Virus record (IMG/VR): IMGVR_UViG_3300033485_000048
Location: 1 to 36,969 of that record
Reading direction: 5' to 3' (one strand)
DNA: 36,969 nucleotides
Source of the DNA: a virus
Lineage: Duplodnaviria > Caudoviricetes
Shown: positions 1 through 33,555 of the stretch, in pieces
Layout of the letters: the number at the start of each line of letters is the position of its first letter
Position numbering within the stretch: the first letter of the stretch is position 1
Program-made: the position numbers and the translations under genes
Notes under the pieces: model-generated
Seen by the model: only the letters and a program-made list of their open reading frames with translations
Databases searched by the model: none
Told to the model about the DNA's origin: nothing

Positions 1-985
1 TGAAGCCAGCAACACCACTGAGCACCGCTTTTTGTGCTGATGCTGTCCTTGTCGCGTGTTTTGCGTTGAGCGCTGTTTGGGTGAGCATTTCGCCCATCGC
101 ATGTGCGGCGATCATGCCCACGTTGTGTCCCAACGTAGGGAGCTTCCCTCGCGTGTTCAACCCGTAGCATTTCTGGCACACACCGTCGGGTGCTTCGCAC
201 GTCATGGGAGAACGCACACGCAGTTGCTTCACGTTCTGGTCTTGCCAATTGCGAATGTTCTGAGGCGTGATGAGTTCACCGGTGTCGGCTCGATAGCGAT
301 CAATCGCGTTGCTGTCGGTCGTGTCCATCACGATGCCGTTCTTCGTACCGCAGTCCGGCATTGTGATGATCTGGTCGGTCATGTTGTTGACGAGGATTTT
401 ATTTACCTCGCCAGGCTCGGATACAGATGTGAATGACTCAACCGCATTTCGCCGTGCTTCTTGCAATGCGATCCAGTTGTCTGCGGGTTTGAGCCCCTCT
501 GCGTAGCTCTTGCTGATGAGCCACGGAATGGTGTTTTGTTGGTCATCCACCGCGGCGACAGGCGATGTGACCGTACGCATGAGCTGGTTGATTTTGCCTC
601 GCGCACCGCTGGTCGCCATCGCGGTCATCTGACCGGGATGCGTCTTGGTCGACTCTACGAGCTTCTGTTGCGTGTCGTGAATGAGTTTGATGCGCTTCGC
701 AGAATCCTTGGTCTTGCGTATCGCTGTGAGTGCTGGCTCCAGGATGCGGTCGCGAACAGCGTAGTCAGGTTCGATGTCATCAAGACCAACAGTGATGCCG
801 GTATCTGTAGAAACGGCGTCACCAACACGCTTCAACTTGCCGATGGTCTCAACATAGAGCTTGGGATCCTTGCGGGCAAGGTCCACCATCAGCGTGTTGA
901 GCTGTTTCTTACTGACCGAACCGTTGATCTGATGCGACGACGGAAGTACGTCGTTCAGCAGCAGTTGCCCGACCGTTGTGGCCAC
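1..985 (-). CDS. rpoC: Phage RNA polymerase beta' subunit, C-terminal half (RpoC2/A''-like); partial, runs off the window edge
   Basis: Not in the ORF track; translated by hand from GTG at 985, 2 nt after the upstream stop. Open to position 1: MATTVGQLLLNDVLP...GITVGLDDI...SGARG...SYAEGL...ARRNAVESFTSVSEPGEVNKILV (bridge helix)...DCGT...VRSPMTCEAPDGVCQKCYG (Zn site)...GHNVGMIAAHAMGEMLTQTALNAKH (trigger loop), colinear with bacterial beta'. Confidence 0.93.
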   Translation of the reverse strand, partial: MATTVGQLLLNDVLPSSHQINGSVSKKQLNTLMVDLARKDPKLYVETIGKLKRVGDAVSTDTGITVGLDDIEPDYAVRDRILEPALTAIRKTKDSAKRIKLIHDTQQKLVESTKTHPGQMTAMATSGARGKINQLMRTVTSPVAAVDDQQNTIPWLISKSYAEGLKPADNWIALQEARRNAVESFTSVSEPGEVNKILVNNMTDQIITMPDCGTKNGIVMDTTDSNAIDRYRADTGELITPQNIRNWQDQNVKQLRVRSPMTCEAPDGVCQKCYGLNTRGKLPTLGHNVGMIAAHAMGEMLTQTALNAKHATRTASAQKAVLSGVAGF

Positions 986-987
986 GG

Positions 988-1290
988 TTACCCCCGTGGG
1001 CTGAACGGCACCATGATGCCGGGGCCGACAGGTTGTCCTTCATCGAGCCCTGCCATACTGATGGGTGCGCCCCACGAGACATGCTTTCCCTTGCTGAAGA
1101 AGTGACCATTCTCGGGATAGATCTTCACTTCTTCATCCATCTGCTGTTGCAACATGTCGGCAAGACGCTCTGCCGGAATGTTCTTCGACTTGGAGGGAAA
1201 GGGTGTACCTAGCTCGTCTGCGCGCGAAGCGCACTTGAGGCCTAGTTCTTCGAGTGCGCGCAGCACTCCCTCTTTGTAGAAAGGCGTCAC
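988..1290 (-). CDS. Hypothetical protein with N-terminal leader motif (FYKEGVLRALEELGLKCA)
   Basis: GTGA overlap with the upstream gene and 2-nt gap to the downstream gene; shares the leader/KxA motif with neighbouring late proteins. Confidence 0.7.
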   Translation of the reverse strand: MTPFYKEGVLRALEELGLKCASRADELGTPFPSKSKNIPAERLADMLQQQMDEEVKIYPENGHFFSKGKHVSWGAPISMAGLDEGQPVGPGIMVPFSPRG

Positions 1291-1868
1291 TTGCCGTTCG
1301 TCTTTGCGGTGATGGCAGCCGCGCGCTCACCCGTGCTTCCGATGACACCGTCGCTACCTGCGCGGTTGAGATGCAGCACGCCCTCGATGAGCTGCGTGAG
1401 CTTCTCGTCGGTGTACTCCTTGCCGTAGCCCATGCTGTCGGCGACCTTCCAGAGCGCATCCTTGACCTTGGTGATCGTCTCTGCGCCGGGCGTTTTCACA
1501 CCGTCGCCATGGAGCACACGCTTCTCGAGTTGTTCTTCACCCCACGCGACGAGCTGCTTGGCTTTTTCTGCCAGGAGGTCTTCGACCTGTACGGGGATGT
1601 CGATCTTGAACTTGGCTTCGAGAAGCTGCACGAGCTTGCGCAGCCCTGCTGCGATGAACGCGGCTACTACCAGGCCAAGGGCGCTCGCGACGGGAAGCAA
1701 CAGCGCTTGCCACCACTTCTGCGTCACAGGCGCGGGTGTGGGGTCTGCCGCGAGAGCGACGAGCGGCCAGAAGCACACGGTCATGATGGTGCAGAACGCA
1801 GCGATGGCTGCGAGGCGAAGCTGAAGGATGTGTTGGGTGAGCCGTGTCATTATCATTCTCCTGTTCAT
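1287..1868 (-). CDS. Putative holin-like membrane protein (LL-H holin-like)
   Basis: Two hydrophobic segments, then QLVAWGEEQ...GAE...KVKDAL...TDEKLTQLIEGVL, resembling the C-terminal pattern of LL-H holins; 4-nt overlaps on both sides. Confidence 0.55.
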   Translation of the reverse strand: MNRRMIMTRLTQHILQLRLAAIAAFCTIMTVCFWPLVALAADPTPAPVTQKWWQALLLPVASALGLVVAAFIAAGLRKLVQLLEAKFKIDIPVQVEDLLAEKAKQLVAWGEEQLEKRVLHGDGVKTPGAETITKVKDALWKVADSMGYGKEYTDEKLTQLIEGVLHLNRAGSDGVIGSTGERAAAITAKTNGK

Positions 1869-2857
1869 GCGCGTGTTCGTTCGGGAGCGATGGCGCGACC
1901 TGCGTGGTAGCCACCGATGCCACCCCCTATGCCACCTGCAAGACTTAACAAGCTACCGGGAGCTACACCCGTGAAACGTCGAATTGCACGTGCGCCAAGA
2001 TTCGCACCTGCACCTGTGCCTGCCCCCATCAAAGCACCACGTAGACGATTTTCCGGACCTGCGGCAAGTGCACCGATGCCTGCACCTATTGCACTTGGAA
2101 GTAATATCCCGGCTGTTTTGGAGAACTGTTGAAGTGCACAGCGCACGCCGAGCCCATATGCCGCAGTCTTGCCCGCCTTGAGTTCATCTTCCATCTTCGC
2201 GAGAGGATCGTAGTAGTTGTCGAACTCCACGAGATGACCTTTCGTGATGGCCTTGCGGACAGGAAGACTGTCCGAGTGTTCTTTCTCTACTTCGATGCCC
2301 TTCGCAAGCTGATCGGGGCGGAAAGCGCTATCGGGACGATCGTGTGCTTTGAGCTGCGCGGCGATGTCTTCACCGGAGAGTTCGGCGCTGGTCTTCAGTT
2401 TTTCACCGAGCAGTTGATAGACTTGCTCCTCGAGCGTGTGAGGATCTGTACCGTATGCTTCGGCGAGTTCATGGACGTTGGCGTCTTCCGGTGTGGGATT
2501 CGCACGGAAAAAGGTGGTGAGCGCGGCTTCGGGAACTTTTTTGCCCTCGGTGATGGTAGGTTCTTGTTCGTCTGTGGAAGCGAGCTTGCGTGTCGCCACA
2601 GCCTTCAACTTGGCCAGCGACGGAGCCCCGATAGGCGTGGCGAGGGCTCCTGGTGCAGGCATGGTCACTTCGAGCGGCTTGGGTTGCGGAGGCAGCTTGA
2701 TTTCGAGAGGCGCGAACGTTGCCTTGGCGGCGTCGACCGCTTTTTTCACGTGCTCGGGCAGGTCCTTCCCTTTCGGGGTGTGCGCAGCCCACCGCTTGGC
2801 GATGCCTGGGTGTTTCGCGAACATGAACCGGCGTTGTGCGTCTGATTTGAAGGGCAT
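1865..2857 (-). CDS. Modular virion-type protein: MPFKS module, acidic helical module, DUF5661-like module and Gly-zipper tail, separated by KxA/S motifs
   Basis: N-terminal MPFKSDAQRRFMFAKHPGIAKRW (a pattern seen in small phage proteins); QLAKGIEVEKEH...GHLVEFDNYYDPLAKME resembles DUF5661; Gly/Ala-rich hydrophobic C-terminus; GAGG SD upstream. Confidence 0.75.
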   Translation of the reverse strand: MPFKSDAQRRFMFAKHPGIAKRWAAHTPKGKDLPEHVKKAVDAAKATFAPLEIKLPPQPKPLEVTMPAPGALATPIGAPSLAKLKAVATRKLASTDEQEPTITEGKKVPEAALTTFFRANPTPEDANVHELAEAYGTDPHTLEEQVYQLLGEKLKTSAELSGEDIAAQLKAHDRPDSAFRPDQLAKGIEVEKEHSDSLPVRKAITKGHLVEFDNYYDPLAKMEDELKAGKTAAYGLGVRCALQQFSKTAGILLPSAIGAGIGALAAGPENRLRGALMGAGTGAGANLGARAIRRFTGVAPGSLLSLAGGIGGGIGGYHAGRAIAPERTRA

Positions 2858-2858
2858 A

Positions 2859-2896
2859 CGCGAACCTCTTCGGGGAGAATTATAGGTGGGTTCGCG
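2859..2896 (-). promoter_or_regulatory. -10-like late promoter (CCTATAATT, 2878-2886) inside an 8-bp inverted repeat overlapping the RBS of 1865-2857
   Basis: CGCGAACC 2859-2866 pairs with GGTTCGCG 2889-2896; TATAAT lies in the loop. Confidence 0.55.
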
Positions 2897-2899
2897 GCG

Positions 2900-5719
2900 T
2901 TACTCAACCTTCTTGATGGGAATGCCGAGACGCACACGCGCCTTTCCGTGCTGGTCTACATCGTGCCAGCGTGCTCGGAACTCCGCGCCGGTCATCTTAC
3001 GGATGGGTTTCCTCGATGAGGGGTCGCTGAGATGTACGTAGCGGTCGACCTTGCTCACGACGGAGTAGTGTCCGTTGCGGTTTGATCGTGCCGGACCATC
3101 CTGGTACGCGGTGATGACGGGAGTACCGGCACGCGTCAGTTCGCGAAGCTTGGTAAGCGTCATGCCCTCACGAACTTTCGCACCCACGACCTTCGCGATG
3201 GCTTCGGGGTCAGTACCTCTGCGTGTGGTCTGCGTGACCTTGGCGAGCACTGCTTCAGGTGCATCCAGACCGTGGTGACGAAGCGCGATGCGCAGCGATG
3301 CGGGACCGCAATTGCCGCGTCGTTCACGGTACGCGTGAGCGGCGGGGTTGAGCATTGCGGTCTTCAAGTGCTGCTTCAATAGTTCGATGTCCGGTTGGTC
3401 TTTAGGTCGATTCATGCGCTGTTTCCAGTGCAACGCATGTTCGGGCGACCAATGCGGAGTCCCATAGTGTGTTGCTGTGGGCACTTCAGCTGCACCAAAA
3501 TCTTCGTCTTGTACCATCCAAGGACCCGTGAAGAGTTCAATCTCTCCTTGGGGCGTCTGGAAACGTACTCGAGGATTGCCCGGACGAATTTCGTCAACCG
3601 TAGCACCAGGAAGTCTGGTCAGCGCTTTGAAGGCCTTCGGGTCAGGGACATGCACATCGAGGTCATGTGTACGCTTGAGTCCAAGTGCTCCAAGGATGCC
3701 ACTGCCGCCAATTCTAACTTGCGTGGGGTCAACTTTTGCTTGTGCAAGTAGCGTATGCAGGTGTCCCACGTAGTTTTTATGCGCAGCGCGCAGAAGAACA
3801 CGTTGTCTTTGCAACATGCCTTCGTAAGGATCACCCGGGACTTCAAGAAGTGTTGCCCACGCTTTTTCAGTACCGAGACCTTCTTGTTTGAGAGCGCGAG
3901 CCTTCTCCGCTAGTTCGGGAAATTGTTTGGCCAGGGCACGTTCGACGTTACGATGTTGTACGCCGCGTCGTGCCAGTGTGGGGTCTGCGGTGGCGTAGAT
4001 GTTCACGGGACGTCCATATCCGGGCAAGCCATAGACAGAACGTCGTTCATCGTGCGTTTCGGTTGTACCCGCAGGAAACTTCGCAAGTAACTCTTGGGGC
4101 GAAGGAGTGAACAGACTTACATCGACATCGGAGAGTCTTCGGGCATCAGGAAGACCTCCACTTGCGTGTCGAAGTGGCAAGTCAGGAAACTGCTTTCGTA
4201 CTTGACGAAAAATGGCTTCTTGCGATTCGGCGGAAGTCTTCTCTTCGAGCGGCTGCATCCCCTTGTCGAGGTGCCAGTCCTGAAAGGACGGTGCCCGCAG
4301 TGCGCCTGGTTTCTTCGGGTGGTCCTTGTCGGTGTACAAACCCAATGCGCGAACGCGCGCCACGCGGCCGATGTACTTCTCGGGATGCGCCAACATGTCT
4401 TGTTTCAAGTCGTGGGTGATGCCGGTGCCGACACGTCCAACAATCTTGCCGCGAGGCGTCCACGAGTACGTGAAGCCACCGGCCAAGCCTTCGCGTCTTC
4501 CCGTTTCGGGGAACACTTCGCGCACGTACACGTCGTGATCGGGGCGGAACTTCGCCTTCACGGGAGGTCCACCGCCCAGCGGCCACATCACTACGCCTTC
4601 GCTCGTAACAGGCTCACGACCCGACCGGATGCGTTCCAGAAGCTGGATCTTCTCTTTCGCAGTCCCTGCCATCGGAGGCAGTTCGAGGAAGGGAAGGGCT
4701 TCGTTAACGCGCTTGAGGATGTCGAGCTTTTCTTGATAAGGGACCGACTCGACATCCTTTCCGTTACGGCGAGCCACGTCGAATACGACTGCGCGAAGTG
4801 GCGAGTGCGATTGGGTGTCGCGGCTCTTCCAGACGCCCGAGTTGAGCACCGCGCCGGTCTCGACAGCTTCACGGGCGCGTCCGGTGTGGGGGTCGGAGGC
4901 GAAGAGTTCGCCGCGGAGCACGAGTCCGTCCAGATGATCTGGTACACGTGATGTGAGCCCAGGCAAGAATCGGTGCGTGTGCTCAATGATGCCGGTGTCA
5001 CGTTCAGTGGGACGATAGGAGAAGATGCGGACGGGCTGACCCGCGTTGAGTTGAATCGTGTTATGGGCACCATCGACTTTCGCCATCATGAGTTGATCGT
5101 CGTTCGTGACGTCAACTTTGTCGGGCTCTGTTTCTTTGTAGGTGGGTTTGCTTTGCGGTAGATTCGGATTGGTCGCCCGCGTGACAGTCACGTTCTGAAG
5201 CAACCACTTGTTCTCGCGAGTTCGGCGCAGAACGTACTCGTTGTTCTGCTTTCCTTCGTAGAGATTAAAGCGCACCTTGTCATTGTTGGCTTCGATGATG
5301 TCGACAGGTGCCTTGACGGCCATTCGTACGCGGCCTTTACCGTAACCGGACTCAATCAGTTCCGGTTTCTTGTCTCCAAAGTGAAGGGCGTACTCTGGCG
5401 TGTGCGTGAACGTCTGTACCGCAAGGAGTTTCTCGCCAGGTTCGGGGAGTCGCGCTTTCGGGATGGCCCACGAGTGTGCCTTACCTGCGTCAGGATCAAC
5501 GAGCCGAAGGTCGTAGTGACGACCTGCTCTCGTAGCTTCGTGATCTTGAACGGCGAGCGTCCAGCGATTGAGCGTGGTGGGTTTGATCGAAGGCAGACGA
5601 CTGATCGGTTTCCCCGAAGGAATCCCCGGTGCGAATTCGGCAGCGGTCTTTACGTGGTAAAGCCCGAGGTCAGCGAGTGCAGCGAGTCTACCGCTCGTGG
5701 TGAATACGCGTGGTAGCAC
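2900..5719 (-). CDS. Multidomain polyprotein: LigD-type 3'-phosphoesterase + ATP-dependent DNA ligase + two Pol-beta-like nucleotidyltransferase domains + C39-like cysteine peptidase
   Basis: PE: HEATRAGRHYDLRL..SWAIPK..LAVQT..H..EY..GYGKG. Ligase: KVDG, LRGEL, VVFDV, EGVV, KAK, GRVGTG, LRAPSF. NTase: SGG..SDVDV and IGGSG..HDLDV..RPKDQPD. C39: NCGPASL..GT..GHYSVV..LSDPS. Confidence 0.85.
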   Translation of the reverse strand: MLPRVFTTSGRLAALADLGLYHVKTAAEFAPGIPSGKPISRLPSIKPTTLNRWTLAVQDHEATRAGRHYDLRLVDPDAGKAHSWAIPKARLPEPGEKLLAVQTFTHTPEYALHFGDKKPELIESGYGKGRVRMAVKAPVDIIEANNDKVRFNLYEGKQNNEYVLRRTRENKWLLQNVTVTRATNPNLPQSKPTYKETEPDKVDVTNDDQLMMAKVDGAHNTIQLNAGQPVRIFSYRPTERDTGIIEHTHRFLPGLTSRVPDHLDGLVLRGELFASDPHTGRAREAVETGAVLNSGVWKSRDTQSHSPLRAVVFDVARRNGKDVESVPYQEKLDILKRVNEALPFLELPPMAGTAKEKIQLLERIRSGREPVTSEGVVMWPLGGGPPVKAKFRPDHDVYVREVFPETGRREGLAGGFTYSWTPRGKIVGRVGTGITHDLKQDMLAHPEKYIGRVARVRALGLYTDKDHPKKPGALRAPSFQDWHLDKGMQPLEEKTSAESQEAIFRQVRKQFPDLPLRHASGGLPDARRLSDVDVSLFTPSPQELLAKFPAGTTETHDERRSVYGLPGYGRPVNIYATADPTLARRGVQHRNVERALAKQFPELAEKARALKQEGLGTEKAWATLLEVPGDPYEGMLQRQRVLLRAAHKNYVGHLHTLLAQAKVDPTQVRIGGSGILGALGLKRTHDLDVHVPDPKAFKALTRLPGATVDEIRPGNPRVRFQTPQGEIELFTGPWMVQDEDFGAAEVPTATHYGTPHWSPEHALHWKQRMNRPKDQPDIELLKQHLKTAMLNPAAHAYRERRGNCGPASLRIALRHHGLDAPEAVLAKVTQTTRRGTDPEAIAKVVGAKVREGMTLTKLRELTRAGTPVITAYQDGPARSNRNGHYSVVSKVDRYVHLSDPSSRKPIRKMTGAEFRARWHDVDQHGKARVRLGIPIKKVE

Positions 5720-5720
5720 A

Positions 5721-6149
5721 TTAGTGCCGCGTGTTCTTCAGTTGCTTTTTGCGTTTGAGCTTGGTTTTGAGCGCCTTGAAACTTGTTCCTTTGCTCATGG
5801 AAAGGCGCGAAGCGCGAGCCTTGGCGCTACGCGGTGTTCCTAGCTTCTCGAGGGCCTTCTCGACGGCGTACTCCGCGGCTGTCTTTCGCGGCGCATCCGT
5901 TGGGTTGTCGTAGTCGCGCTCGAGGAACGAACTGAAGAAGTCCTGCGAAAGCTTTGTGGCACTTCCGACCCCACCATCCGTGGGCATGGGTGAAGGACGA
6001 CCGCTACCCTGCGTGGGCTGTTGCACCGGGTTGCCCGTGCCACTGGTCGGCATCTGCGACGGCATGGGTGCGCCGGTGCCCGCGCTGATGTCGAGGGCAC
6101 ACTTCGCTGCTTCAACGCCCAGCCAGTACGCTGTGTCGAGGGCGTTCAT
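5721..6149 (-). CDS. Small putative head/internal protein with leader motif and very basic C-terminal tail
   Basis: MNALDTAYWLGVEAAKCA leader; internal KLS and KTAA; Lys/Arg-rich tail; 1-nt gap to the downstream gene. Confidence 0.7.
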   Translation of the reverse strand: MNALDTAYWLGVEAAKCALDISAGTGAPMPSQMPTSGTGNPVQQPTQGSGRPSPMPTDGGVGSATKLSQDFFSSFLERDYDNPTDAPRKTAAEYAVEKALEKLGTPRSAKARASRLSMSKGTSFKALKTKLKRKKQLKNTRH

Positions 6150-6156
6150 GGGAATG

Positions 6157-6369
6157 TCAGAAACCGCGCTTGGGACCTGCCAGGCCTGCGTTGGGACCTG
6201 GGTTCACGGGGCCCGGAGGGGCCGCCGGGGGGACTGCGCCGCCGGGAGCGCGGATGCCCGGAGGCGGTGTGACGGGCGCGGGCGGTGCCGCAAGCTTCTC
6301 CACTTCGGCCTGGAAGTCTTGCATCGCCTGGGCAGCGCCCAGCTTGTACGCGGTGTCGAGATGGCTCAT
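6157..6369 (-). CDS. Small Pro/Gly-rich protein with leader motif
   Basis: MSHLDTAYKLGAAQAMQDF..EKLA; AAGGAG SD; leader paralogous to that of 5721-6149. Confidence 0.7.
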   Translation of the reverse strand: MSHLDTAYKLGAAQAMQDFQAEVEKLAAPPAPVTPPPGIRAPGGAVPPAAPPGPVNPGPNAGLAGPKRGF

Positions 6370-6401
6370 TGAAAGCTCCTTGTCGGGTACTTCGTCGCTG
6401 A

Positions 6402-6410
6402 AAGTATAGG
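6402..6410 (-). promoter_or_regulatory. Putative late promoter -10-like element CCTATACTT
   Basis: In the intergenic gap upstream of 6369; similar elements precede other minus-strand genes. Confidence 0.5.
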
Positions 6411-6423
6411 ACAGATCAGCTCG

Positions 6424-9400
6424 TTAGCCAATCGTGACGTTATCGTTGAGCTGAATCTCTCCTCTTTTATATGCAGCGAGCGCCTCGGCCTTGGTCTTGA
6501 ACTTGACCGCCTTACCACCCTTCGTGCTACTCGCGGTGTAGATGCCGAGGATCGCTTCGTGCTGGGGGAACACCATGAGGTCGTTGCGCGTCTTATCGCC
6601 GAAGAGCAAGTTGGAGAGCGTCATCGATCGGACATCTTGCATGGCGCCTTCGCTCGCCGGTACGTGAATCTGCACCGTGTCCCCGTCGTAGTCCATGTTC
6701 ATGCCCTGTTCCATGAACGGGTTCACGCGGATGGTCTTCCCCGGTACGGGTACAGGGTACGCACCCACCATGCCGAAGCGATGAAGCGTAGGTGCTCTGT
6801 TCACGATGACGGGGCGCTGTTGCGTTTCGGCCATCATCGCATCACGCGCCACAGGATGTCGGTCTGCGATCATCTGCTGTGCATCGAGTGCTTTGTAGCC
6901 ACCCTGCACGAGACGCCGCATGATGTGCGGTTCGTAGGTCTTCCAGAGCATGTCTTCGGGTAGACCGACTTGGTCCATGTCGAGCGTTAGATCTGGAGCT
7001 ACTGTACCTCGAGCTGTCAGATCTTGGGTACGTTTGAGTACCTTCGCGTGAAAGAATCCTCGCTTCGGACTGCCCTGACCCGAGATGCTGCTGATGAAAC
7101 CTTGGGCTCCACGTGCTTTGAGTTGTGGACTGACTGCATCATCGAGCCCGAACACAGCGCGTGTTGCATCGTAGAGGTGCGTACGTGCCTTACCGATCTC
7201 GTTCTCGGGGAGACTCTTCTTCGCCGTCGCGAGGGACTCATTCGCGAGGATGGCATCCCTGTAGAAGTAGTTCGCATCCGCGATGAGCAGGTCACGTTTG
7301 CCGCGCGAGGGAAGCACCGGCCTCACCACCGGCGGCACGATAGGAATCTTCGACAACACGAAGGCTTCGTGTGGTTTGATCTGCTGCTTCTCGAGGGCCT
7401 TGAGCACTTTGAGTTGCTTGATGGCGTTATCGAGCTTTGCACCCGTGGCATCGCGAACTTCTTCTTCGAGTTCTTTGATACGTGTTTCGATGTCGAGCGC
7501 CTTCAGGCGCTTTTGGATGCCTGCGCCTCCCTCTGTGTGAATCGTGCGACGGAACTCTGCTTGGGTCATACCAAGCATGCGTCGAACAGGGTCTTCGAAC
7601 GAAGGATTCACGATGGGTTCTTCGAGAGACACATGGGACCAACGACTGCCGTTGGTACCGCCGGTGATCACGGGATCGAAGAGACCGCCCTTCTCAGGGT
7701 TGAGATCCTTTTCGCGGACCATCGTGCCGCGGGTGATGGCACCTGAAGACAGTTTATCGATGTCACGATCGGTGAGCGGACCGAGCGTCACGATGTTTTG
7801 ACTCTTGTCGATGCGGATACCCGCACCCCGCAACATGTCGGTGAATTTGTCGACTGCGAAAGGTGTCCGTACAGCAGGCAACGGTTGGCCGAGTTGATAC
7901 GCTCGCCACCACGCATCGTTCTTGGAACTCTTCAGTGTGCTTGTTTCGCGAAGGACGTTACGAGCGTTGTGTGCGAGTAGCGCACCGACCTCCATGCGGC
8001 CCAGGGCCTTCGCGCCCTCTGTGCCACCTTTCGCGGGTTGCAGGTTGATGTCGTAGTCAGACACGCCGCGTGCCGCATAGTTCGTCTCAGTCGACTTGAA
8101 GAGTTTGTAGATGTACTGCGGGCCAACCATGATGCCTTTGCCGTCAGGTCCTTCGATGTTCTTGCCCGAGACCGGGTTGTAGAGAACCTCTTTGTCGCTG
8201 ATGCCGTGTTTCTTGAGCAGATCTTTCGCCCACTTGACGTTGTTCCGACCCGACATCGAGGAAATCACGATGGGTTCGCCAGTTTTCTTGGCGACTTTCG
8301 CAACCGCTGTTTCGATGATTTGAGCCGGATTCACACGGGAGACGATGCCTGCGGAGGTCATCAGCAGATCGAGAGGTGCACCGTCTTGGGTGCGCACCAT
8401 CTGGTCATCCGGGATGACCTTCGAGATGACGCCTTTGTTTCCGTAGCGTCCTGCGATCTTGTCACCGATGGCTGCGGCTTCACGCGTTTTGACGGTCAGG
8501 ACTACACGGGTCTCATTCACTACGACGTCGATCACTTCCCCTTCATTGCGATGGTCCCATACGACGGTCACTTCGCGGTACGGTGTCGCGAGAGTCTTGT
8601 GCAAACGCCCCAGCATTTGTTGTTCGGCTGATGGGGCTGTCTTTCGTATCGCAAGGACCAGCGGGTCTCCGGGTTGTACGATCGCACCGCTCTTCGCAAT
8701 ACCGCGTTCATCGAGCTTGGCGTACTGATCTGCGGTCCAACGCATGCCGAACTGTGCTTGGTGCTTCTTCTTGTCGAGAACGATGTCGTTGTCGCGCGGC
8801 AGAGACTCCTTGTACATGTGCTCACTGGTGAGCTTCTTGGCGCCGGTCTCCGAGACGACGACAGCGTCGTTGGAGTTGAGCCCGTAGTACGCGAGATACC
8901 CCACGTTCAGGTTCTTGCCCAGCGCGAGCTTGCCGTCACGTGTGTAGTTGCTCTCCGCGAGGTGCTGATTCGCCTCAACGCGATCTCCGGCCTTCACGAT
9001 GACGTCATTGTGCAAGTACGTCTTCGAGGACAGCGGGAAGTTCGTGTCGTAAGGGATCTTGATGAGCGGGGTCGCAGTTGCTGCCGTTTTTGCGTCATCA
9101 TCGGGATCTGGTTCAGTGAGAACGTGTTCGATGGGGGCGATATGTCCGTAGGGGAAGAGCGTTGCTTCGTCTTCAGCCTTCTTACGGTACTCCGGCTTGA
9201 GGTAGATGTAGTCTTTGTCGACCTTCTTGATCACGCCCGCCATGGGTGCTGTGGGAACGATGAGATCGGCAAGTTCTCGCTCGAAGGTACGTCCTGGGTT
9301 GAAGGACGCGACCTGCACGAGGGGTTCTTCGCGGTCAACGAGGGGAAGTGCCTGCGTCGAATACTTTGCCCCCATCAGGGTACGATTTCCCTGAAGGCTC

Positions 9401-10887
9401 TCGGGCATGGGCACCGTGTTGGACGCAGGCGAGAACATGAAGGAAGGGTGCGGCAGCTCGTAGTCGACATCCTTTTTCGCGACCGAAACGAGTTTCCCTT
9501 CGCGCAGTGCGGACAGCCCAGACGTGCGCTTCATCTCACCAGGAAATGCCACGGTGGACTTTTCGATCTTCTGCACAGGAACGTCTTCGAGATAGCCCGT
9601 CTTTGCGTTGCGCATGAGTGAGTACATGCGCCCTTGTTCATCGCGTTTGGTCCAGATGGCTGCGCGCAGGTCTATCCCTGCACGAAACGACTCCGGTGTG
9701 CGTGCTGGGTCGATCAGTCCGAAGTGCGTGTGATGCAGGTTGCGTGCTTCGCTGGGGACGGCTCTCTCTGAGCTGATGCCCCCTTCCCCGAGGTTGGTCA
9801 CACGCACGGCGCTGTCGATGATCTCCATCGGGTTGATCTGTGTGGGGATGGCAGACAACGCCGCGTTCGTCACGAACGACCGAAGAGACCGAGTGAACGG
9901 TGACGCCGGCATGATCTTGGCGAGGGTTGGTGCGCTGCCTGCGGTGCTGACCTTCGTCTTGATCTTACGTGTGATGGCCCGCCCTTCGAGCTGGATGCGT
10001 TCCTTGATGAAGTCATCCACGCTGTGGAGCGCTTGAAACGAGAGGCTGTCACGATCGTCTGTGTCGCGGCCTTCGCGGTGTACATCGAGGAGCTTCTGCG
10101 ACGCCTTCAACAGTGCCTGAGGTGTGACCCTGTCGAAGCGTTCACCGAGCGTCTGTTCCGTGACGTTCGGGTCGAGCATCGTGTTCTGGTACTGTGCAGC
10201 GATTTCGCGCGCCATGCTCTCGGGTGCGGTCGCCGTTCTTTTGTACTCCGGTACGAGCCGCTCGTAGAGCTTCGTGATGGCTTGTTCTTGCTTTTTCGTG
10301 AACGCATCACGGTTTGTCGCTACAACCCCCTCACCCCAGTGTTTGTTGATCTGGGTGTCGTTCACCCCGAGCGACTTGAGCACGGGATAGAGCGGGATGT
10401 TGGTCGAACCGTACTGAAGGTACATGTGCCCCTTGGCAGGATCCATGTTGATGCGGAAGTTCTCGCCCTTCCCGAGGTTGAATGCAGCCTCCAGTTCTTC
10501 GTTGCCACGGACACGTGTGTAGACGCCGGGGCGCACCCGGCGTTGATGCGCCACGGAGTACTCATTGCCCTCCACGATGAAGGTGTGGCGCTGGGTGAAG
10601 TAGGGCAACTGCGCGAGGGTGACTCCCTCCTTCCTGTCGATCACTTTGCCCGCTGCATCACGCAGAACGAGGTCTCCGCGTAGTGGCTCTTGAAGCGTCT
10701 GTCCGTTGAGGATGGCTTCCTTTTGCTCACGGGAGGAATATTCGCGTGGCAATACGTGGACGTTTTTGACCTCCAACGCCACATTGCGATGCTGCAACGG
10801 AAAGACGCTCTGAACGCCTTCGATGGCTTTCTTGTGGATCTGTTCTCGTCGCGTGCCTGCATCGACGAGTACGGGTGTGAGCTTCAT
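6424..10887 (-). CDS. rpoBC: Phage multisubunit RNA polymerase, beta subunit fused to N-terminal half of beta'
   Basis: Beta motifs: TPES, GNRTLMGAKYSTQALPL, LALGKN..NSNDAVVVSE, GDKIAGRYGNKGVISK, GIVSRVN, LGRMEVGAL. Beta' motifs: GGLFD, IPIVPPVVRP, VIVNRAPTLHR, catalytic NMDYDGD at 6679-6699. Confidence 0.95.
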   Translation of the reverse strand: MKLTPVLVDAGTRREQIHKKAIEGVQSVFPLQHRNVALEVKNVHVLPREYSSREQKEAILNGQTLQEPLRGDLVLRDAAGKVIDRKEGVTLAQLPYFTQRHTFIVEGNEYSVAHQRRVRPGVYTRVRGNEELEAAFNLGKGENFRINMDPAKGHMYLQYGSTNIPLYPVLKSLGVNDTQINKHWGEGVVATNRDAFTKKQEQAITKLYERLVPEYKRTATAPESMAREIAAQYQNTMLDPNVTEQTLGERFDRVTPQALLKASQKLLDVHREGRDTDDRDSLSFQALHSVDDFIKERIQLEGRAITRKIKTKVSTAGSAPTLAKIMPASPFTRSLRSFVTNAALSAIPTQINPMEIIDSAVRVTNLGEGGISSERAVPSEARNLHHTHFGLIDPARTPESFRAGIDLRAAIWTKRDEQGRMYSLMRNAKTGYLEDVPVQKIEKSTVAFPGEMKRTSGLSALREGKLVSVAKKDVDYELPHPSFMFSPASNTVPMPESLQGNRTLMGAKYSTQALPLVDREEPLVQVASFNPGRTFERELADLIVPTAPMAGVIKKVDKDYIYLKPEYRKKAEDEATLFPYGHIAPIEHVLTEPDPDDDAKTAATATPLIKIPYDTNFPLSSKTYLHNDVIVKAGDRVEANQHLAESNYTRDGKLALGKNLNVGYLAYYGLNSNDAVVVSETGAKKLTSEHMYKESLPRDNDIVLDKKKHQAQFGMRWTADQYAKLDERGIAKSGAIVQPGDPLVLAIRKTAPSAEQQMLGRLHKTLATPYREVTVVWDHRNEGEVIDVVVNETRVVLTVKTREAAAIGDKIAGRYGNKGVISKVIPDDQMVRTQDGAPLDLLMTSAGIVSRVNPAQIIETAVAKVAKKTGEPIVISSMSGRNNVKWAKDLLKKHGISDKEVLYNPVSGKNIEGPDGKGIMVGPQYIYKLFKSTETNYAARGVSDYDINLQPAKGGTEGAKALGRMEVGALLAHNARNVLRETSTLKSSKNDAWWRAYQLGQPLPAVRTPFAVDKFTDMLRGAGIRIDKSQNIVTLGPLTDRDIDKLSSGAITRGTMVREKDLNPEKGGLFDPVITGGTNGSRWSHVSLEEPIVNPSFEDPVRRMLGMTQAEFRRTIHTEGGAGIQKRLKALDIETRIKELEEEVRDATGAKLDNAIKQLKVLKALEKQQIKPHEAFVLSKIPIVPPVVRPVLPSRGKRDLLIADANYFYRDAILANESLATAKKSLPENEIGKARTHLYDATRAVFGLDDAVSPQLKARGAQGFISSISGQGSPKRGFFHAKVLKRTQDLTARGTVAPDLTLDMDQVGLPEDMLWKTYEPHIMRRLVQGGYKALDAQQMIADRHPVARDAMMAETQQRPVIVNRAPTLHRFGMVGAYPVPVPGKTIRVNPFMEQGMNMDYDGDTVQIHVPASEGAMQDVRSMTLSNLLFGDKTRNDLMVFPQHEAILGIYTASSTKGGKAVKFKTKAEALAAYKRGEIQLNDNVTIG

Positions 10888-10892
10888 GGTCG

Positions 10893-10900
10893 AAGTATAG
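10893..10900 (-). promoter_or_regulatory. Putative -10-like element CTATACTT giving a leaderless RNAP mRNA
   Basis: TATACT is followed by 6 nt and then the ATG at 10887; no SD visible. Confidence 0.5.
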
Positions 10901-10939
10901 ACAAAAGCGCCACCTTTCTAAAGAAAGAGCGAATTCGGG

Positions 10940-11090
10940 TATAAGAACTAGCCCCGCACTCGTGTAGTCACTGGTATCCCCCCACCAGTGGCTGCACGAT
11001 GTGGGGTACTGAACACGGTTTGTGTTCTTTACGCATCATGGCTAGCCACAACGGGGGAGTGACCTCTGCACACCAATCCGGAGGTGATGC
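10940..11090 (+). promoter_or_regulatory. Structured 5' leader (long hairpin, possible pseudoknot, SD-sequestering stem) after a TATAAG -10-like box
   Basis: TATAAG 10940-10945; ~24-bp stem 10951-10975/10984-11007 with G-U pairs; loop TCCCCC complementary to GGGGGA 11053-11058; ACCTCTG 11062-11068 pairs with CGGAGGT 11079-11085 (SD). Confidence 0.55.
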
Positions 11091-11951
11091 ATGCCTGAAA
11101 CGGTTGCGGGGCGTTTCTGCCTCGCCTGGCCGGACCGCTTGAGTCTGTACGACATGAACAGACTCGTGCGGGCCAAACGAACCTGCTCCATCCCCGATGA
11201 GCTTGGCCGGCTCGCGGGGAAGGGCATCTGCATGACGAGCGAGGAAGCCTACTCGCTCATCGAGCAGCTCTACGCGCTGTGGGAGAAGCTGGGATTCTAC
11301 CCCCTCGACCCTGATCGGGAGCCGATGGAGTGGACCCAGGGCGACGAGGATCTGCCTCCGTGCGTGCTCGCCACCACGGAGTCCATGTACGTCGACGTCA
11401 ACGACATGGACAGGATCGTCGCGCTCTACAAGGGCACGAACCTTCCCGACTACCTCCCCGAGAACGAGCGCCAGGCACGGCTGCGACGGCAGCAGAGACG
11501 CCTGGTCATGACCACGCAGTGCCGGGAACCTGGCTGTGACGAAATGGTGGCGATCACCATCGGCATGGCCGGCAGGGCAATCGTGGAGCACAAGCTCCGC
11601 GAGAAAGGAGACGTGTACGAGCCCTCGACGCTGTGCAAGACGCACAGGCTCGCGAGGGACGCCAAGCTCGCAGAGAAAAGAGCCAACGGAGCGGGCCGAT
11701 TGAACGTGCCAATCGGCGACCATGTCAGCGCCAAGGGCAAAGCCCGCGGTGCGGCGAAGGCGGCCAAGGGAAGGGCACGTAAGGCTGCCGCTGCTACGCC
11801 CGAAAACGCTACGAGCGCAGTCCCGCAGGAGGCGCCACGGCAAGAGGAGAATAGCTGTGCTGATCAGAACGTTGCTGTTGATTCTGTTCCGGAGGTGACG
11901 TCGGCTTTGCCGGCAACGCAACCGGAAGCGGAGTCGGCAGTGACGACGTAG
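11091..11951 (+). CDS. Hypothetical protein with CxxxxC...CxxH zinc-finger-like motif and low-complexity tail
   Basis: Strong GGAGGT SD; GC3-rich codon usage; CREPGC...LCKTH. Confidence 0.75.
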   Translation: MPETVAGRFCLAWPDRLSLYDMNRLVRAKRTCSIPDELGRLAGKGICMTSEEAYSLIEQLYALWEKLGFYPLDPDREPMEWTQGDEDLPPCVLATTESMYVDVNDMDRIVALYKGTNLPDYLPENERQARLRRQQRRLVMTTQCREPGCDEMVAITIGMAGRAIVEHKLREKGDVYEPSTLCKTHRLARDAKLAEKRANGAGRLNVPIGDHVSAKGKARGAAKAAKGRARKAAAATPENATSAVPQEAPRQEENSCADQNVAVDSVPEVTSALPATQPEAESAVTT

Positions 11952-12177
11952 GAACCTGCACCATGACTGGGCGGCCCCCCTCGGACAGCACAACTGTCTG
12001 GGTGGGGGTCGCCGTTTCTTTTGGTGCGGTCTCTTCGGGTGTTCCGGTGAAGAGTTCACCCACCCAGTCCTTCACGGGACGGACCAGTTCTTTTCCCAAC
12101 TCTGTTCGAAGGAGTTGCGCTGTCTTGGCTCGGGTCAAGAAGTAATGCGCAGCTGCCTTGAAGAACGGAGGGATCAT
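11809..12177 (-). CDS. Hypothetical protein (KTA motif near N-terminus)
   Basis: ATGA overlap with 12174-12644; the 3' end overlaps the convergent + strand gene by 143 nt. Confidence 0.5.
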   Translation of the reverse strand: MIPPFFKAAAHYFLTRAKTAQLLRTELGKELVRPVKDWVGELFTGTPEETAPKETATPTQTVVLSEGGRPVMVQVPTSSLPTPLPVALPAKPTSPPEQNQQQRSDQHSYSPLAVAPPAGLRS

Positions 12178-12647: not shown

Positions 12648-14366
12648 CTACCCTCCGCCTTGCGCCTGACGTTTTGCTTGGTACGCCTGTGAGGTTTCCA
12701 TTTCTTCGAGTCGTTGTACCACGACAGAGTACATGACGTAGTCTTCGACCTGAAGCGCATGGAGTCTGCTCTTGCGCATGCCCGGGTCAACGCTGGAGAG
12801 TTCCTGAACGAGCTGGTCAGCTTGGCCAATGACGGCCTGCTGGTCGTATTGCAAGCCCGTCTGACCGAGCATCGCTTGCGAACGTGCTTGCTGCGCGAGG
12901 GACTGTTGTAGCTGTTGGGTCTCCTGCTGCATCTTCTGCTGGAATCGAATCTCGTCGAGCTGTTCCTGGAGGCGTCTTTCACGTTCCTTCTTCAGGTCGA
13001 AGTCGTTCAGCTCCGCGATGGTCGTGTTCGAGATCAACTGAGCGTTTTGATTCAACTGGAGGATCAGTTGCTTCTGCTGCACGTCGTCGATGAGCTTGAA
13101 CTCGGTCAGCTCGACTTCCACATCGGGCCAGCCCAGCATCTTGCAAGAACGCGTGGTGATCCACTGGAGCAGTTCGTTCAGCTCTCCCGTGTAGGTGAGG
13201 AGTTGGTTCTCGAGCATACGCAGCGTGATCGCGGACCCCGTGAACGACAGACCTCCGTAGATGAACTCGCGGGGGATACCCATCGCGGCGATGATGGAGT
13301 CTTCGGCTTCTTTCACCTCGCCGAGGGTGAGCAGCGCACGTCCATCGCCCCCGATCTGGAGCGAGTCAACGGGTACGCCCGAGTGGAAGATGGTGAGCGG
13401 GTCTTTGCGATGTCGACCAAGGCCGCGCTTCACCTCTTCGAACATACGCGAAAGCGAGATGGTCTGGATGGGGTCCGCGTTCGCGGATGTCTGCTTCGGG
13501 AAGAGCACACGGAAGGGGACGAGGTGATCAAGCGCGATTGCTTCGTTCGCCTTGCGCAGGATCGCGGTGTAGAAGAAGAGTTTGATGGTGCTCGTGAGCG
13601 GCGGGAATCCCCACTGGGGGTCGATGCCGGCGGGCGGCGCGACCTTCATGTGGTAGATCTGCCCATCCTTGAAACGGAACATCTTGTTGTCCCGTGCCGC
13701 AGCGATGAACTCGAGGGGCAAGTGGTTCAGCAACAGCTTGTTGCCTTGCCGGATGCGGTTCTTGATGTCCGGTGGGATCGAGTAGTAGTAGATGGATTTC
13801 CCCGAGATGGGATCGTGGTCGATGTCCATCTGCTTGGGGTCCCAGCGGATGATGTGAATCTGGTTGGGGTCAGTCAGGCGCCGATCGATGACCTTGCCTC
13901 GTACCGTGCGTCGACACTTTCGGCACGTGTACTCAAAGGTCATCGGGGTGTACTTGAAACGGTAATTCACGTGCTGGATGTTGACGAGCTTGTTGCACTG
14001 TGGACACTTCAAAAAGCGCGCGAACGGCTGGTACAGGGAGATGAATGCGTTGCCGTAGATCCAACGGTCACGCCCACTGAGAATGAGGATCTCTTTCACG
14101 CGCAGTGTCTTCTCGAGCAACTCCTTGACGCGGTCCTCGGCGCCTCTGTTGGTGGTGTTGTAGGAGATGTCCGTGATGGGGTATTCGGAGAACTTCTTCA
14201 ACGCAGCAAAGACTTGCGCTGAGTTGTAGTAGAGGTACTCCATCCACGCGAACAGGTCACGGAGTCGACGGGGGACAAACCCCGTCACGAAGTCGAACAT
14301 CGGATTGGGATGCGCTGTGTTGTTTCGATACAGCGCTTCCAGATCCGTTACGGTCATATCAGACAT
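12648..14366 (-). CDS. Probable portal protein with zinc-ribbon insertion
   Basis: 572 aa; RWIYGNAF, WGFPPL, IIAAMGIPREFIYGGLSFTGS, a pattern typical of portal clip/tunnel regions; Gln-rich coiled-coil C-terminus; CPQC...CRKC insert; GAGGA SD. Confidence 0.7.
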   Translation of the reverse strand: MSDMTVTDLEALYRNNTAHPNPMFDFVTGFVPRRLRDLFAWMEYLYYNSAQVFAALKKFSEYPITDISYNTTNRGAEDRVKELLEKTLRVKEILILSGRDRWIYGNAFISLYQPFARFLKCPQCNKLVNIQHVNYRFKYTPMTFEYTCRKCRRTVRGKVIDRRLTDPNQIHIIRWDPKQMDIDHDPISGKSIYYYSIPPDIKNRIRQGNKLLLNHLPLEFIAAARDNKMFRFKDGQIYHMKVAPPAGIDPQWGFPPLTSTIKLFFYTAILRKANEAIALDHLVPFRVLFPKQTSANADPIQTISLSRMFEEVKRGLGRHRKDPLTIFHSGVPVDSLQIGGDGRALLTLGEVKEAEDSIIAAMGIPREFIYGGLSFTGSAITLRMLENQLLTYTGELNELLQWITTRSCKMLGWPDVEVELTEFKLIDDVQQKQLILQLNQNAQLISNTTIAELNDFDLKKERERRLQEQLDEIRFQQKMQQETQQLQQSLAQQARSQAMLGQTGLQYDQQAVIGQADQLVQELSSVDPGMRKSRLHALQVEDYVMYSVVVQRLEEMETSQAYQAKRQAQGGG

Positions 14367-14402
14367 GGAGTCCTCAATTCACCTGAAAGGAGAATAGGTT
14401 AG

Positions 14403-14882
14403 GTGCCATCGGATTACAAGCGCACGGTCTGTAACTTCTGCATCCACAAGGTGAATTGTGAAGGCCTTCGTGGACGACTCCTGTGTGGTCTCTGTCCCAA
14501 AGCACTACTGTGCACCATGCACGGTGATATTGGAAGTCGCACGTGTTCGTTCGTGACGGAACGCTGGACTGCAACTTTACCGAGTAAATGCTTGCTCGCC
14601 GTGAGCTTGTTGCCGGAGCTGACCGACAAGGGCGACAGCCAATCCCTCGCAGTGGGTTTCCGGACAGCACAGACACTTTTGCGTTTGGAAAACGGGGAGG
14701 GCGAGTCAAGTGAATTGTGGCTTTGCCCACGGTGTAGTCTCCCCACTTTGGCGAAAAAAGTCCATCACGATTGGAATGCGGGCATCGGTCGCAAGCACCA
14801 ATTGTCCACCGAATATCGCTTGGTCTGTTCGATTTGTGGCCTTGACGAGCGCAAAGTGCATGGAGTAATGTCGGCGAGATAA
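14403..14882 (+). CDS. Cys-rich zinc-finger protein
   Basis: CNFC, CGLC, CPRC and CSIC pairs; ends 2 nt before the helicase start. Confidence 0.6.
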   Translation: MPSDYKRTVCNFCIHKVNCEGLRGRLLCGLCPKALLCTMHGDIGSRTCSFVTERWTATLPSKCLLAVSLLPELTDKGDSQSLAVGFRTAQTLLRLENGEGESSELWLCPRCSLPTLAKKVHHDWNAGIGRKHQLSTEYRLVCSICGLDERKVHGVMSAR

Positions 14883-14884
14883 AC

Positions 14885-20017: not shown

Positions 20018-20203
20018 ATGTTCGAGAAGGAGTTCGAAAAATACGGCGTGGAAGAAGGTGCGGACGCGAAGACAGCGTCACGTGACCTCGACGACACAGC
20101 GCGGATTTGTCCGCACTGTGGCACCCCGCTCGAGTCTGTCGAGAACACCAACGTGCTCAAATGTCCCCGTTGCGGGACGCTACCGTTCGAACAAAAGCCA
20201 TGA
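20018..20203 (+). CDS. Small zinc-ribbon protein
   Basis: CPHCG...CPRCG; GGAG SD. Confidence 0.7.
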   Translation: MFEKEFEKYGVEEGADAKTASRDLDDTARICPHCGTPLESVENTNVLKCPRCGTLPFEQKP

Positions 20204-22409: not shown

Positions 22410-23242
22410 TTCACCAGCACGTCACTGCTGTTGCGGACATTCAGCCGCATCAGTCGCGTCTTCAACTCCTGTAACGCTTCCTCTTTGATCTGCCGTACAC
22501 GTTCGGAACAGACACCGAGCTTCTGTGCAATCTCACGTAACGTCTTGGGGTCTTCGCGCAATCCGAAGTACGCGATGACGACGTACGCCTGTCGATCTTT
22601 CATGGATCGCAGGATGCTGTGCAACAACGAGAGTGCGTGTTGCTCCAGCGCTTCATGTTCGTGATTGCCGATGACCGCTTCGGCTTGTTCAGCCGCATCT
22701 TCGAATGAGACGTAGGTGAGACCGACAGCCTGTCCTTGCTGACGGGCACGATGGTGTTCTTTTTGTTTGTAGGGTGGGATATGAACCAGCGAGGACTCGT
22801 ACAGCTCTGTGCGTATCGCTTCTGAAATCCACCACGCGGCGTAGGTCAAAAAGCGCGTGGTGTAACGTTCGGCATCGAATTGACGCAAGCGTGCGTTGCA
22901 ATCATTGCAACGTTGGTGTTTGGGTGCGGCCACAAAATTCTGTTTGCCACAGCGTCGACATTTGATGACCCAGGGTCGGTAACGGTCGACAGCAACCATC
23001 AGACCTACGTTGCCTGCCGCGATGAGGTTCTTCAGAAACTCCGTGTCCCCGCGATAGTACTGCTTCGCGGTCTTGATGACGAAACGCAGGTTCCCTTCGA
23101 CGAGCCTGCGTTTCGCTTCAAGGTCACCGTGTTGGTGGTACCGCTCGAAGAGTGCCTGTTCCTCTATGGCATTTTCGGGCATGCGTGCGGCACTGACGTC
23201 TCTGAAGTACTGCGCGTAAATCCGATCCTCTTCAAAGCGCAC
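22406..23242 (-). CDS. Sigma-70 family factor with zinc-ribbon insertion in region 2
   Basis: LVEGNLRFVIKTAKQY (2.1), LIAAGNVGLMVAVDRY (2.2), RFLTYAAWWI (2.3), TLREIAQKLGVCSERVRQI (4.2); GGAGG SD. Confidence 0.92.
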   Translation of the reverse strand: MRFEEDRIYAQYFRDVSAARMPENAIEEQALFERYHQHGDLEAKRRLVEGNLRFVIKTAKQYYRGDTEFLKNLIAAGNVGLMVAVDRYRPWVIKCRRCGKQNFVAAPKHQRCNDCNARLRQFDAERYTTRFLTYAAWWISEAIRTELYESSLVHIPPYKQKEHHRARQQGQAVGLTYVSFEDAAEQAEAVIGNHEHEALEQHALSLLHSILRSMKDRQAYVVIAYFGLREDPKTLREIAQKLGVCSERVRQIKEEALQELKTRLMRLNVRNSSDVLVN

Positions 23243-23343
23243 GGCGGCCTCCGTCTTTTATGGCGGAAGTATATCAAATTAACCCTCAATGATGCAATTT
23301 TTGATGTCGTTAATGTTTATCTAACCGACATCCGTCGAGGGAC

Positions 23344-23373
23344 TTGACATACGAAAAGCTGCCGATGTAGGCT
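23344..23373 (+). promoter_or_regulatory. Putative sigma70-type promoter TTGACA-N18-TAGGCT for the replication operon
   Basis: Perfect -35 at 23344-23349; -10-like TAGGCT at 23368-23373; next to an AT-rich divergent intergenic stretch; AGGAG SD before 23409. Confidence 0.5.
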
Positions 23374-23408
23374 CAGAACCTCGCACCCCACTTAGGAGAA
23401 GAGACAAC

Positions 23409-24425: not shown

Positions 24426-24515
24426 TTTCACCAGGCAGGAGACCACATTCCGCTGGCTTGCAGCCTTGTGCTGCAAGCCAGCGGTTCTCGATTGGTCTAC
24501 CCAGAGGATGAGATC

Positions 24516-32740: not shown

Positions 32741-32749
32741 TATCCTGCA

Positions 32750-33550: not shown

Positions 33551-33555
33551 TGGAG

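Follow-up and report, generated by a model that had tools for sequence, protein, structure and literature searches.

The 36,969-nucleotide stretch of DNA analyzed here (IMG/VR record IMGVR_UViG_3300033485_000048, referred to as the window) covers 37 kb of a phage genome of about 190 kb, from a relative of Salmonella phage Arash. The minus strand of the window, from position 14366 to 2, encodes the portal protein, two genes of a multi-subunit RNA polymerase, and intervening small genes. The plus strand carries replication genes, and the terminase gene is located at 33556–35106. Unrelated proteins of the minus strand share a 14-residue tag and a short motif composed of lysine, any residue, and alanine (K-x-A). 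Comparison with related phages indicates that K-x-A is very likely the recognition site of the prohead protease of the Arash family, an enzyme resembling gp21 of phage T4. We consider it fairly likely that the motif, often with a hydrophobic residue two positions before the lysine, is cut after the alanine by this gp21-like protease, and that the tag addresses proteins to the head.

The portal protein of the window is 35% identical to the annotated portal of Arash and about 33% identical to those of Vibrio phages D69, D148, and D181. A search with the portal protein retrieved 22 related viral loci, from which four near-complete records (170–198 kb) and three fragments were chosen for study. 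Genes were called by a custom script, and two genes of the window were added by hand. The 5′ part of the gene for the C-terminal subunit of RNA polymerase β′ (2–985, minus strand; Pfam Rpb1_5, 72% identity to the orthologue in relative G009) runs off the window. The Arash gene at this position encodes gp216, which is present in virions. In the relatives, the β′ gene is followed by the head-core module, which we define as the stretch from the polymerase β′ gene to the capsid genes. The window stops short of this module, and it was examined in the relatives instead.

The tagged genes of the window are located on the minus strand between the two polymerase genes. The 100-residue conserved protein encoded at 988–1290, with orthologues in relatives G001, G004, G006, and G009, has an N-terminal tag followed by a K-C-A site (1228–1281). 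The 330-residue modular protein (1865–2857), divided according to Pfam and PHROG matches and comparison of junctions, is composed of an MPFKS module, KKA (2738–2752), KLA (2576–2590), a small helical module, KTSA (2384–2398), DUF5661, KTA (2162–2176), an internal tag with KTA (2111–2161), and a glycine-rich tail, which has no significant match among Arash virion proteins. The 939-residue polyprotein (2900–5719), delineated by Pfam, PHROG, and junction swaps in relatives, starts with a tag and KTA (5642–5704), followed by a LigD 3′-phosphoesterase (LigD-PE) and an ATP-dependent ligase, EKTSA (4229–4243), DUF4269, a phrog_12854-like domain, KTA (3356–3370), and a C39 peptidase. The next two genes are tandem look-alikes. 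The first encodes a 142-residue proline-rich, basic protein (5721–6149) with a shortened tag and KCA (6096–6140) and a further KTA (5877–5891); its orthologue in locus L090 has the full tag. The second encodes a 70-residue proline-rich protein (6157–6369), in which the tag profile identified a tag (6313–6360) close to EKLA (6289–6300).

The original prediction, made from the letters of the window, quoted six strings as copies of one recurring leader, and all six are present in the respective reading frames. A tag profile trained on relatives G001–G004 alone finds four sites in the 31 proteins of the window (genes 988, 1865, 2900, and 6157) and none in the reversed proteins, although some of the four have orthologues in the training genomes. 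The 5721 protein scores 11.2 on a second tag profile. The sixth string, described as a looser match, belongs to a real gene (11809–12177, minus strand) for a 122-residue protein, whose orthologues in loci L002 and L003 keep both of its N-terminal K-x-A sites (12118–12165), but its leader is different and does not match the tag profile. The notion of a leader holds for the 988 protein, in which the tag is N-terminal, but the copy in the 1865–2857 protein is internal (residues 233–249), and elsewhere the tag is also found at C-termini. In the late genes of the window, only particular forms of K-x-A are in excess. Bare K-x-A is at chance in the 12 late-strand reading frames of the window (29 against 30.7 in shuffles) and was rejected as a signal there, but K[TC]A occurs 10 times against 2.2 (p 0.0005, for a pattern picked post hoc) and KTA 8 times against 2.1. 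Neither K-x-A (48 against 42.0) nor [LMIVF]xKxA (9 against 10.5) is enriched in a control set of 18 replication-side proteins of the window.

The motif was also predicted to separate domains, and a site is present at three of the five module boundaries of the window polyprotein but absent between LigD-PE and ligase, and between DUF4269 and the next domain. Modules are exchanged at the motif among relatives. The C-terminal end of the ligase was found in eight distinct forms, four of which stop and four of which run on, all via K-T-[AS], into four different domains: DUF4269 (window), GNAT (G004), a YHGS-type domain (L090), and a glycine-rich region with a kinase-like domain (L089). In L089, DUF4269 is instead placed between the tag and the phosphoesterase, with KNA and KHA on its flanks. 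A site marks the start of LigD-PE in 11 of 14 forms, K-x-[AS] ends the MPFKS module in all nine distinct forms (9/9), and DUF5661 has a site on both flanks in 4/4. The predicted structure of the window polyprotein, with a mean predicted local distance difference test (pLDDT) score of 39.8, says nothing about linkers. A 1269-residue polyprotein of relative G002 (L065 13921–17730) contains at least six modules, including LigD-PE with ligase, DUF5661, a HEIGH-motif domain, and a glycine-rich tail, most of them bounded by K-x-A.

The loop of RNA polymerase β provides the strongest evidence for the motif system. The polymerase of the window is a β–β′N fusion of 1487 residues (6424–10887, minus strand; assigned by Pfam), homologous to Arash gp206. 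Its variable loop (residues 567–602; 9082–9189) lies between KKA and KTA and, judged by comparison with homologues, is predicted to be a cargo slot cut by the protease. The loop aligns with a short stretch of bacterial β (residues 654–680 of M. tuberculosis). The loop ranges from 7 to 287 residues in the best 120 of the 599 homologues, a set headed by the protein of the window itself, and contains K-x-[ASG] in 120/120 and K-x-[AS] in 113. Loops of 7–13 residues mostly have one KTA-like site, and longer loops have a site at each end. K-x-[AS] is present at both ends of 47 of the 74 inserts of at least 30 residues, compared to 2.3 in shuffles (maximum 7), and both ends are marked in 71 of the 74 when K-x-G is counted. 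The 37 inserts of at least 75 residues form 15 unrelated clusters and are marked at both ends in 34 cases. The inserts include whole enzymes, pyrophosphatases and P-loop kinase-like domains, and GNAT-type domains are among the passengers. Seventeen of the 37 long inserts cluster with pyrophosphatases, which also exist as stand-alone genes, and the ligase tail of L090 is matched by one. The loop sites retain the lysine and an alanine, glycine, or serine, and small or acidic residues follow the alanine.

In a comparison of structural and replication modules, the motif is piled up in the head-core modules of the relatives, and replication orthologues are at chance. Within module limits that we drew post hoc, after inspecting the sequences, [LMIVF]xKxA occurs 39, 43, and 39 times in G001, G009, and G004 (7.1, 7.2, and 6.5 expected) and 40, 37, and 40 times in G006, G002, and G003 (6.5, 8.0, and 6.4 expected). 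The z-scores are 10.7–13.7 across these six relatives, two of which (G004 and G006) are closely related to each other, and −1.5 to 0.4 for their replication orthologues. The head core of D69 contains 35 copies against 5.0 expected, and that of Arash 34 against 3.4. Shuffling of individual proteins puts z above 10 for every one of the eight core modules. In the Arash core proteins gp218 and gp220–225, a set picked after reading the sequences, K-x-A leads the enriched one-gap residue pairs (42 against 17.4), L-x-K is the second, and no pair ending in glutamate is among the top six. Leucine, methionine, and phenylalanine are enriched about threefold two residues before the lysine in core proteins, alanine comes next after hydrophobic-x-K-x in 245 of 456 cases, and arginine does not substitute for lysine (R-x-A 5 against 8.3 in D69). 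Because the signal is confined to particular modules, KTA reaches the top 14 in genome-wide rankings of trimers for just one of eight records (G009). KEA is found near residues 29–31 of the capsid protein in 120/120 homologues, which is weak evidence because the homologues are 73–95% identical. Beyond the main head module, a motif-rich gene lies close to the terminase (L044 789–1799 in G001; gp242 in Arash).

The tag has the consensus (A/F)-Y-x-x-G-x-x-x-A-L-x-x-(F/L)-G and is predicted to be helical. The fetched loci contain 71 distinct DNA copies, in which synonymous codons are scrambled at the invariant glycine and alanine, and therefore the tag is kept at the protein level. Among unrelated proteins, it can be N-terminal, internal, or, behind a site, C-terminal. 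K-x-[AS] lies downstream of 46 of the 71 tags, and up- or downstream of 54, against a background of 0.18 per 24 residues, in a profile whose seed pattern itself demanded a downstream site. A capsid-targeting role of the tag is plausible, and we lean towards its being a loading signal into the assembling head. Alternatively, K-x-A may be a protease site and the tag an ejection, membrane-binding, or oligomerization helix, or a duplicated remnant of scaffold, which we regard as unlikely but worth serious consideration. Many tagged proteins are glycine-rich, proline-rich, or basic and have no known domains, the 5721 and 6157 genes resemble each other in tandem, some tags stand alone, and three of seven scaffolds contain repeats with a weak likeness to the tag (scores 9.6, 6.1, and 6.1). 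However, the hydrophobic moment of the tag shows no excess (0.233 against 0.232), a poor fit to a membrane helix, and the amphipathic membrane-helix reading was rejected on this ground. The codon scrambling speaks for selection at the protein level, and the mobility of the tag, together with its being usually detachable at a site, is in line with a signal used ahead of maturation. Other shared leaders are present in the more distant relative G003 (G003:C1 30920–31255, 154000–154890, 161792–163855, and 166103–167355), with the words M-[IVL]-K-T-A-x-Q/E-[IV]-A and M-W-T-K-E-A-x-D-Q; the former is reminiscent of the capsid-targeting sequence of T4.

The putative head protease was studied as the 643-residue protein of G009 (G009 22601–24532) and its orthologues. 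Its gene is located within the head module, near the scaffold and capsid genes, and its product matches the head maturation protease family PHROG 18299 (E 1.5e-6 in G009, 5.8e-8 in G001, and 2.1e-6 in Arash gp222). In a VIA search of 48,161 chains with the model of the G009 protein (pLDDT 73.8), the top match is T4 gp21 (Z 9.1, root-mean-square deviation 2.9, 127 residues aligned), and herpesvirus proteases are also matched (varicella-zoster virus, Z 6.5; human cytomegalovirus, Z 5.0). A sequence search of the PDB with the protease returned nothing relevant, and LigD_N and InPase are the only names that Pfam assigned among 15 head-region proteins of G001. H130/H131, S182, and D235 are invariant in 104/104 homologues and form a putative catalytic triad. 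In these close homologues, K-x-A is found at about residue 41 in 103/104, at 252 in 104/104, and at 277 in 103/104; the sites at about 41 and 252 thus bracket the protease domain. Among 150 diverse representatives examined, K-x-A lies seven residues past the PAD motif in 114 of the 119 amenable to anchoring; ahead of the protease domain, K-x-[ASG] is present in 85/85. The domain is followed by a long, motif-rich extension. The C39 peptidase of the window was rejected as the general cutter, as it is absent from all other fetched loci. Intein or LAGLIDADG insertions occur in many homologues of the protease and of the RNA polymerase.

The sequence entropy of the C-terminal protease site is 0.33 bits at the alanine and 3.24 bits one residue further. 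Conservation spans the Val-Ala pair and collapses right behind it, which would place the cut after the alanine, as at the R and M sites of herpesviruses. Provided that the motif is cut, we judge cleavage after alanine, and not after lysine, to be likely. The rather improbable alternative is a cut after the lysine (hydrophobic-x-Lys / x-Ala), as in T4 with lysine in place of glutamate or in an HK97-type system. The T4 site is (Leu/Ile)-x-Glu, and proteases of the HK97 type are lysine-specific. The enriched leucine, methionine, and phenylalanine would then occupy P3, and the strictness of lysine over arginine fits as well. However, the abrupt end of conservation behind Val-Ala, the loop sites that do without a hydrophobic residue, and the small or acidic residues following the alanine argue for the cut after alanine. 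Herpesvirus proteases of the same fold also cut after alanine (YLQA-T and VQA-S, as given in parts of PMC4498786).

The idea of a protease site that divides polyproteins is strongly backed by comparison: by the module-specific enrichment, the gp21-fold protease bracketed by the motif, the module swaps at the motif, and the motif-bounded polymerase inserts. We propose that tagged cargo and the virion RNA polymerase enter the prohead by assembling together with its scaffold and core proteins. The protease would release itself at about K41–A43 and K252–A254, and then digest the motif-dense scaffolds, trim about 31 residues off the capsid protein, remove tags, split polyproteins into separate enzymes, and nick the polymerase β loop, freeing any passenger domain. 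The cut products would be ejected together with the DNA. In the window, cuts are predicted after residues 26, about 496, and 788 of the 939-residue polyprotein and after residues 571 and 602 of the polymerase. More tentatively, and at slightly less than even odds, the whole could constitute a programmable virion cargo system, in which a single alanine-specific protease reads K-x-A, the tag works regardless of its position, and the polymerase serves as a nicked carrier releasing loop passengers. On this reading, the loop has taken up at least 15 unrelated inserts, and domains shift from one setting to another: tagged genes on their own, tails of the ligase, and the loop of the polymerase.

Arash virions contain the RNA polymerase and gp220–225, and gp206, the homologue of β–β′N, is the most-detected protein (per portions of PMC10585845). 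Our counts from these data include 200 of the 252 annotated genes; most short ones were excluded. Outside the core, the motif is mildly enriched in 62 other well-detected proteins (39 against 25.9, z 2.7), but not in the 45 that were detected weakly or the 86 that were not detected. For the motif-dense gp220 and gp225, the ratio of unique to theoretical peptides is 0.30 and 0.15, compared to 1.07–1.67 for the portal, polymerase, and capsid protein, and this low yield fits digestion. Basic, glycine- and alanine-rich proteins detected in virions are also encoded in the tRNA region (L082 5867–9971; Arash gp95–97 and gp100), with K-x-A in gp95, gp97 (12 sites), and gp100. These are likely Arash's own internal proteins.

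Several observations weigh against cleavage at K-x-A and head loading by the tag. The same Arash study, in the portions consulted, lists 80–100% coverage for gp206 and gp220–225, which, taken literally, argues against full removal; it also lists 100% coverage for proteins with two unique peptides, labels gp222 only a 'structural protein', and in those portions mentions no processing. Arash, the one cultured relative with virion data, lacks the tag, as its proteins do not match the tag profile, and it lacks the β-loop insert with its site; in the polymerases of Arash and D69, K-x-A instead occurs at the N-terminus and within a β′ insert, as KSA and KEA, respectively, in gp206. No cultured phage bearing the tag was found. 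The hydrophobic residue before the lysine is not conserved at the polymerase-loop sites. No site is present near 17 of the 71 tags, at 3 of the 14 LigD-PE starts, or at two of the five polyprotein boundaries of the window. The portal is not motif-rich, whereas the portals of T4 and phiKZ are processed. The protease gene lies outside the window and is known solely from relatives (G009, with 80% portal identity). Unrelated MCE domains match the protease model with Z up to 7.8, leaving T4 gp21 a margin of 1.3, and a Foldseek search with the model gave no match at E ≤ 0.001, its weak rows being led by herpesvirus proteases. The hindsight in the core-module limits and the site built into the tag seed pattern count on the same side.

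The high coverage listed for core proteins would suit a motif that is modified or used for docking, through lysine acylation or binding to the core, and is never cut. The strictness of the lysine and the GNAT-type passenger domains point the same way. Nevertheless, we consider this reading improbable, as the motif brackets the protease domain and both ends of 34 of the 37 long polymerase inserts, and modules are swapped exactly at it. The remaining explanation, a compositional artefact of helical proteins rich in lysine and alanine, is in keeping with the chance level of bare K-x-A in late genes of the window, but was ruled out, with a negligible residual probability, by the per-protein shuffles of the core modules and by site positions that stay fixed within hypervariable loops.

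The predicted K-x-A system shares with T4 gp21 and its capsid-targeting sequence the protease fold, the location of the gene in the head module, and a short peptide common to unrelated late proteins and separable at the motif. It differs in the predicted specificity for K-x-A with cleavage at alanine, compared to glutamate in T4; in the tag, which is 14 residues long and also C-terminal or internal, compared to about 10 N-terminal residues; and in the long motif-rich C-terminal extension of the protease and the cargo encoded as polyproteins. Since the motif does not end in glutamate and the tag is not strictly N-terminal, the system is a variant of the T4 type and not a member in the narrow sense. 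T4 maturation includes an N-terminal self-activation segment, core digestion, trimming of capsid and cargo, and a short targeting peptide (passages of PMC9958956). With the phages of the head proteases gp175 (phiKZ) and gp245 (SPN3US), the predicted system has in common a packaged multi-subunit RNA polymerase and a large set of head proteins processed at one short motif. According to sections of PMC10052503 and PMC5694885, these proteases self-cleave C-terminally, SPN3US proteins are cut at A-x-E with release of terminal propeptides and its β subunit is unprocessed, and the β subunit of 201phi2-1 loses an N-terminal propeptide. The site predicted here is, in contrast, internal to β, in a loop with passengers.

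The herpesvirus assemblin–scaffold precursor belongs to the same fold family and likewise combines a protease with a C-terminal part and a release site ending in alanine (excerpts of PMC4498786; background on the precursors in part of PMC8537868). It differs by its Ser-His-His triad, in place of the invariant histidine, serine, and aspartate found here, and here a lysine occupies the predicted P3 position. Phage polyvalent proteins (Iyer et al. 2017, PMC5512222) are also variable polypeptides with several enzymes each, for which packaging and processing are assumed, and share the InPase domain. The consulted passages of that paper credit processing mainly to built-in zincin peptidases and define no junction motif, and LigD and C39 have no occurrence in its text. 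The window polyprotein contains the C39 domain and has no Pfam match to zincin MPTase or MuF. Homologues of the capsid protein, the portal, the polymerase, and the head module are present in Arash (OQ632216) and in the Vibrio phages D69, D148, and D181; the same K-x-A motif is found in Arash and D69, and Arash differs in lacking the tag and the β-loop slot. We found no literature report of a K-x-A head motif, in a search whose coverage largely left out subscription journals. The Arash-like family comprises 2,039 clusters at 50% identity (E ≤ 1e-10). If cleavage at K-x-A is confirmed, it would represent a new specificity for the gp21/assemblin clan across a large family, and injected cargo would be readable from sequence alone. 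The choice of proteins for the prohead core is still open even in T4 (passages of PMC9958956). The passage of a large RNA polymerase through the tail tube is an open question in giant phages (sections of PMC5694885), on which a polymerase cut inside β would bear.

The remaining genes of the window include those of the portal protein (12648–14366, minus strand), without motif enrichment, and of the terminase large subunit (33556–35106, minus strand; Pfam and PHROG), with no K-x-A in 516 residues. Gaps of about 0.5 kb (14367–14884) and 0.8 kb (32741–33555) at the strand switches contain no confident gene call. The 122-residue protein gene (11809–12177, minus strand) overlaps tail-to-tail by 143 bases (11809–11951) with a plus-strand reading frame (11091–11951), and both have orthologues. 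The replication block contains a 61-residue zinc-ribbon gene (20018–20203, plus strand), and K-T-A or K-x-A precedes the ribbon in most orthologues; its product may be a head substrate whose gene lies apart from the late module. A family A DNA polymerase with a fused N-terminal uracil-DNA glycosylase-like domain is encoded at 28861–31905 on the plus strand.

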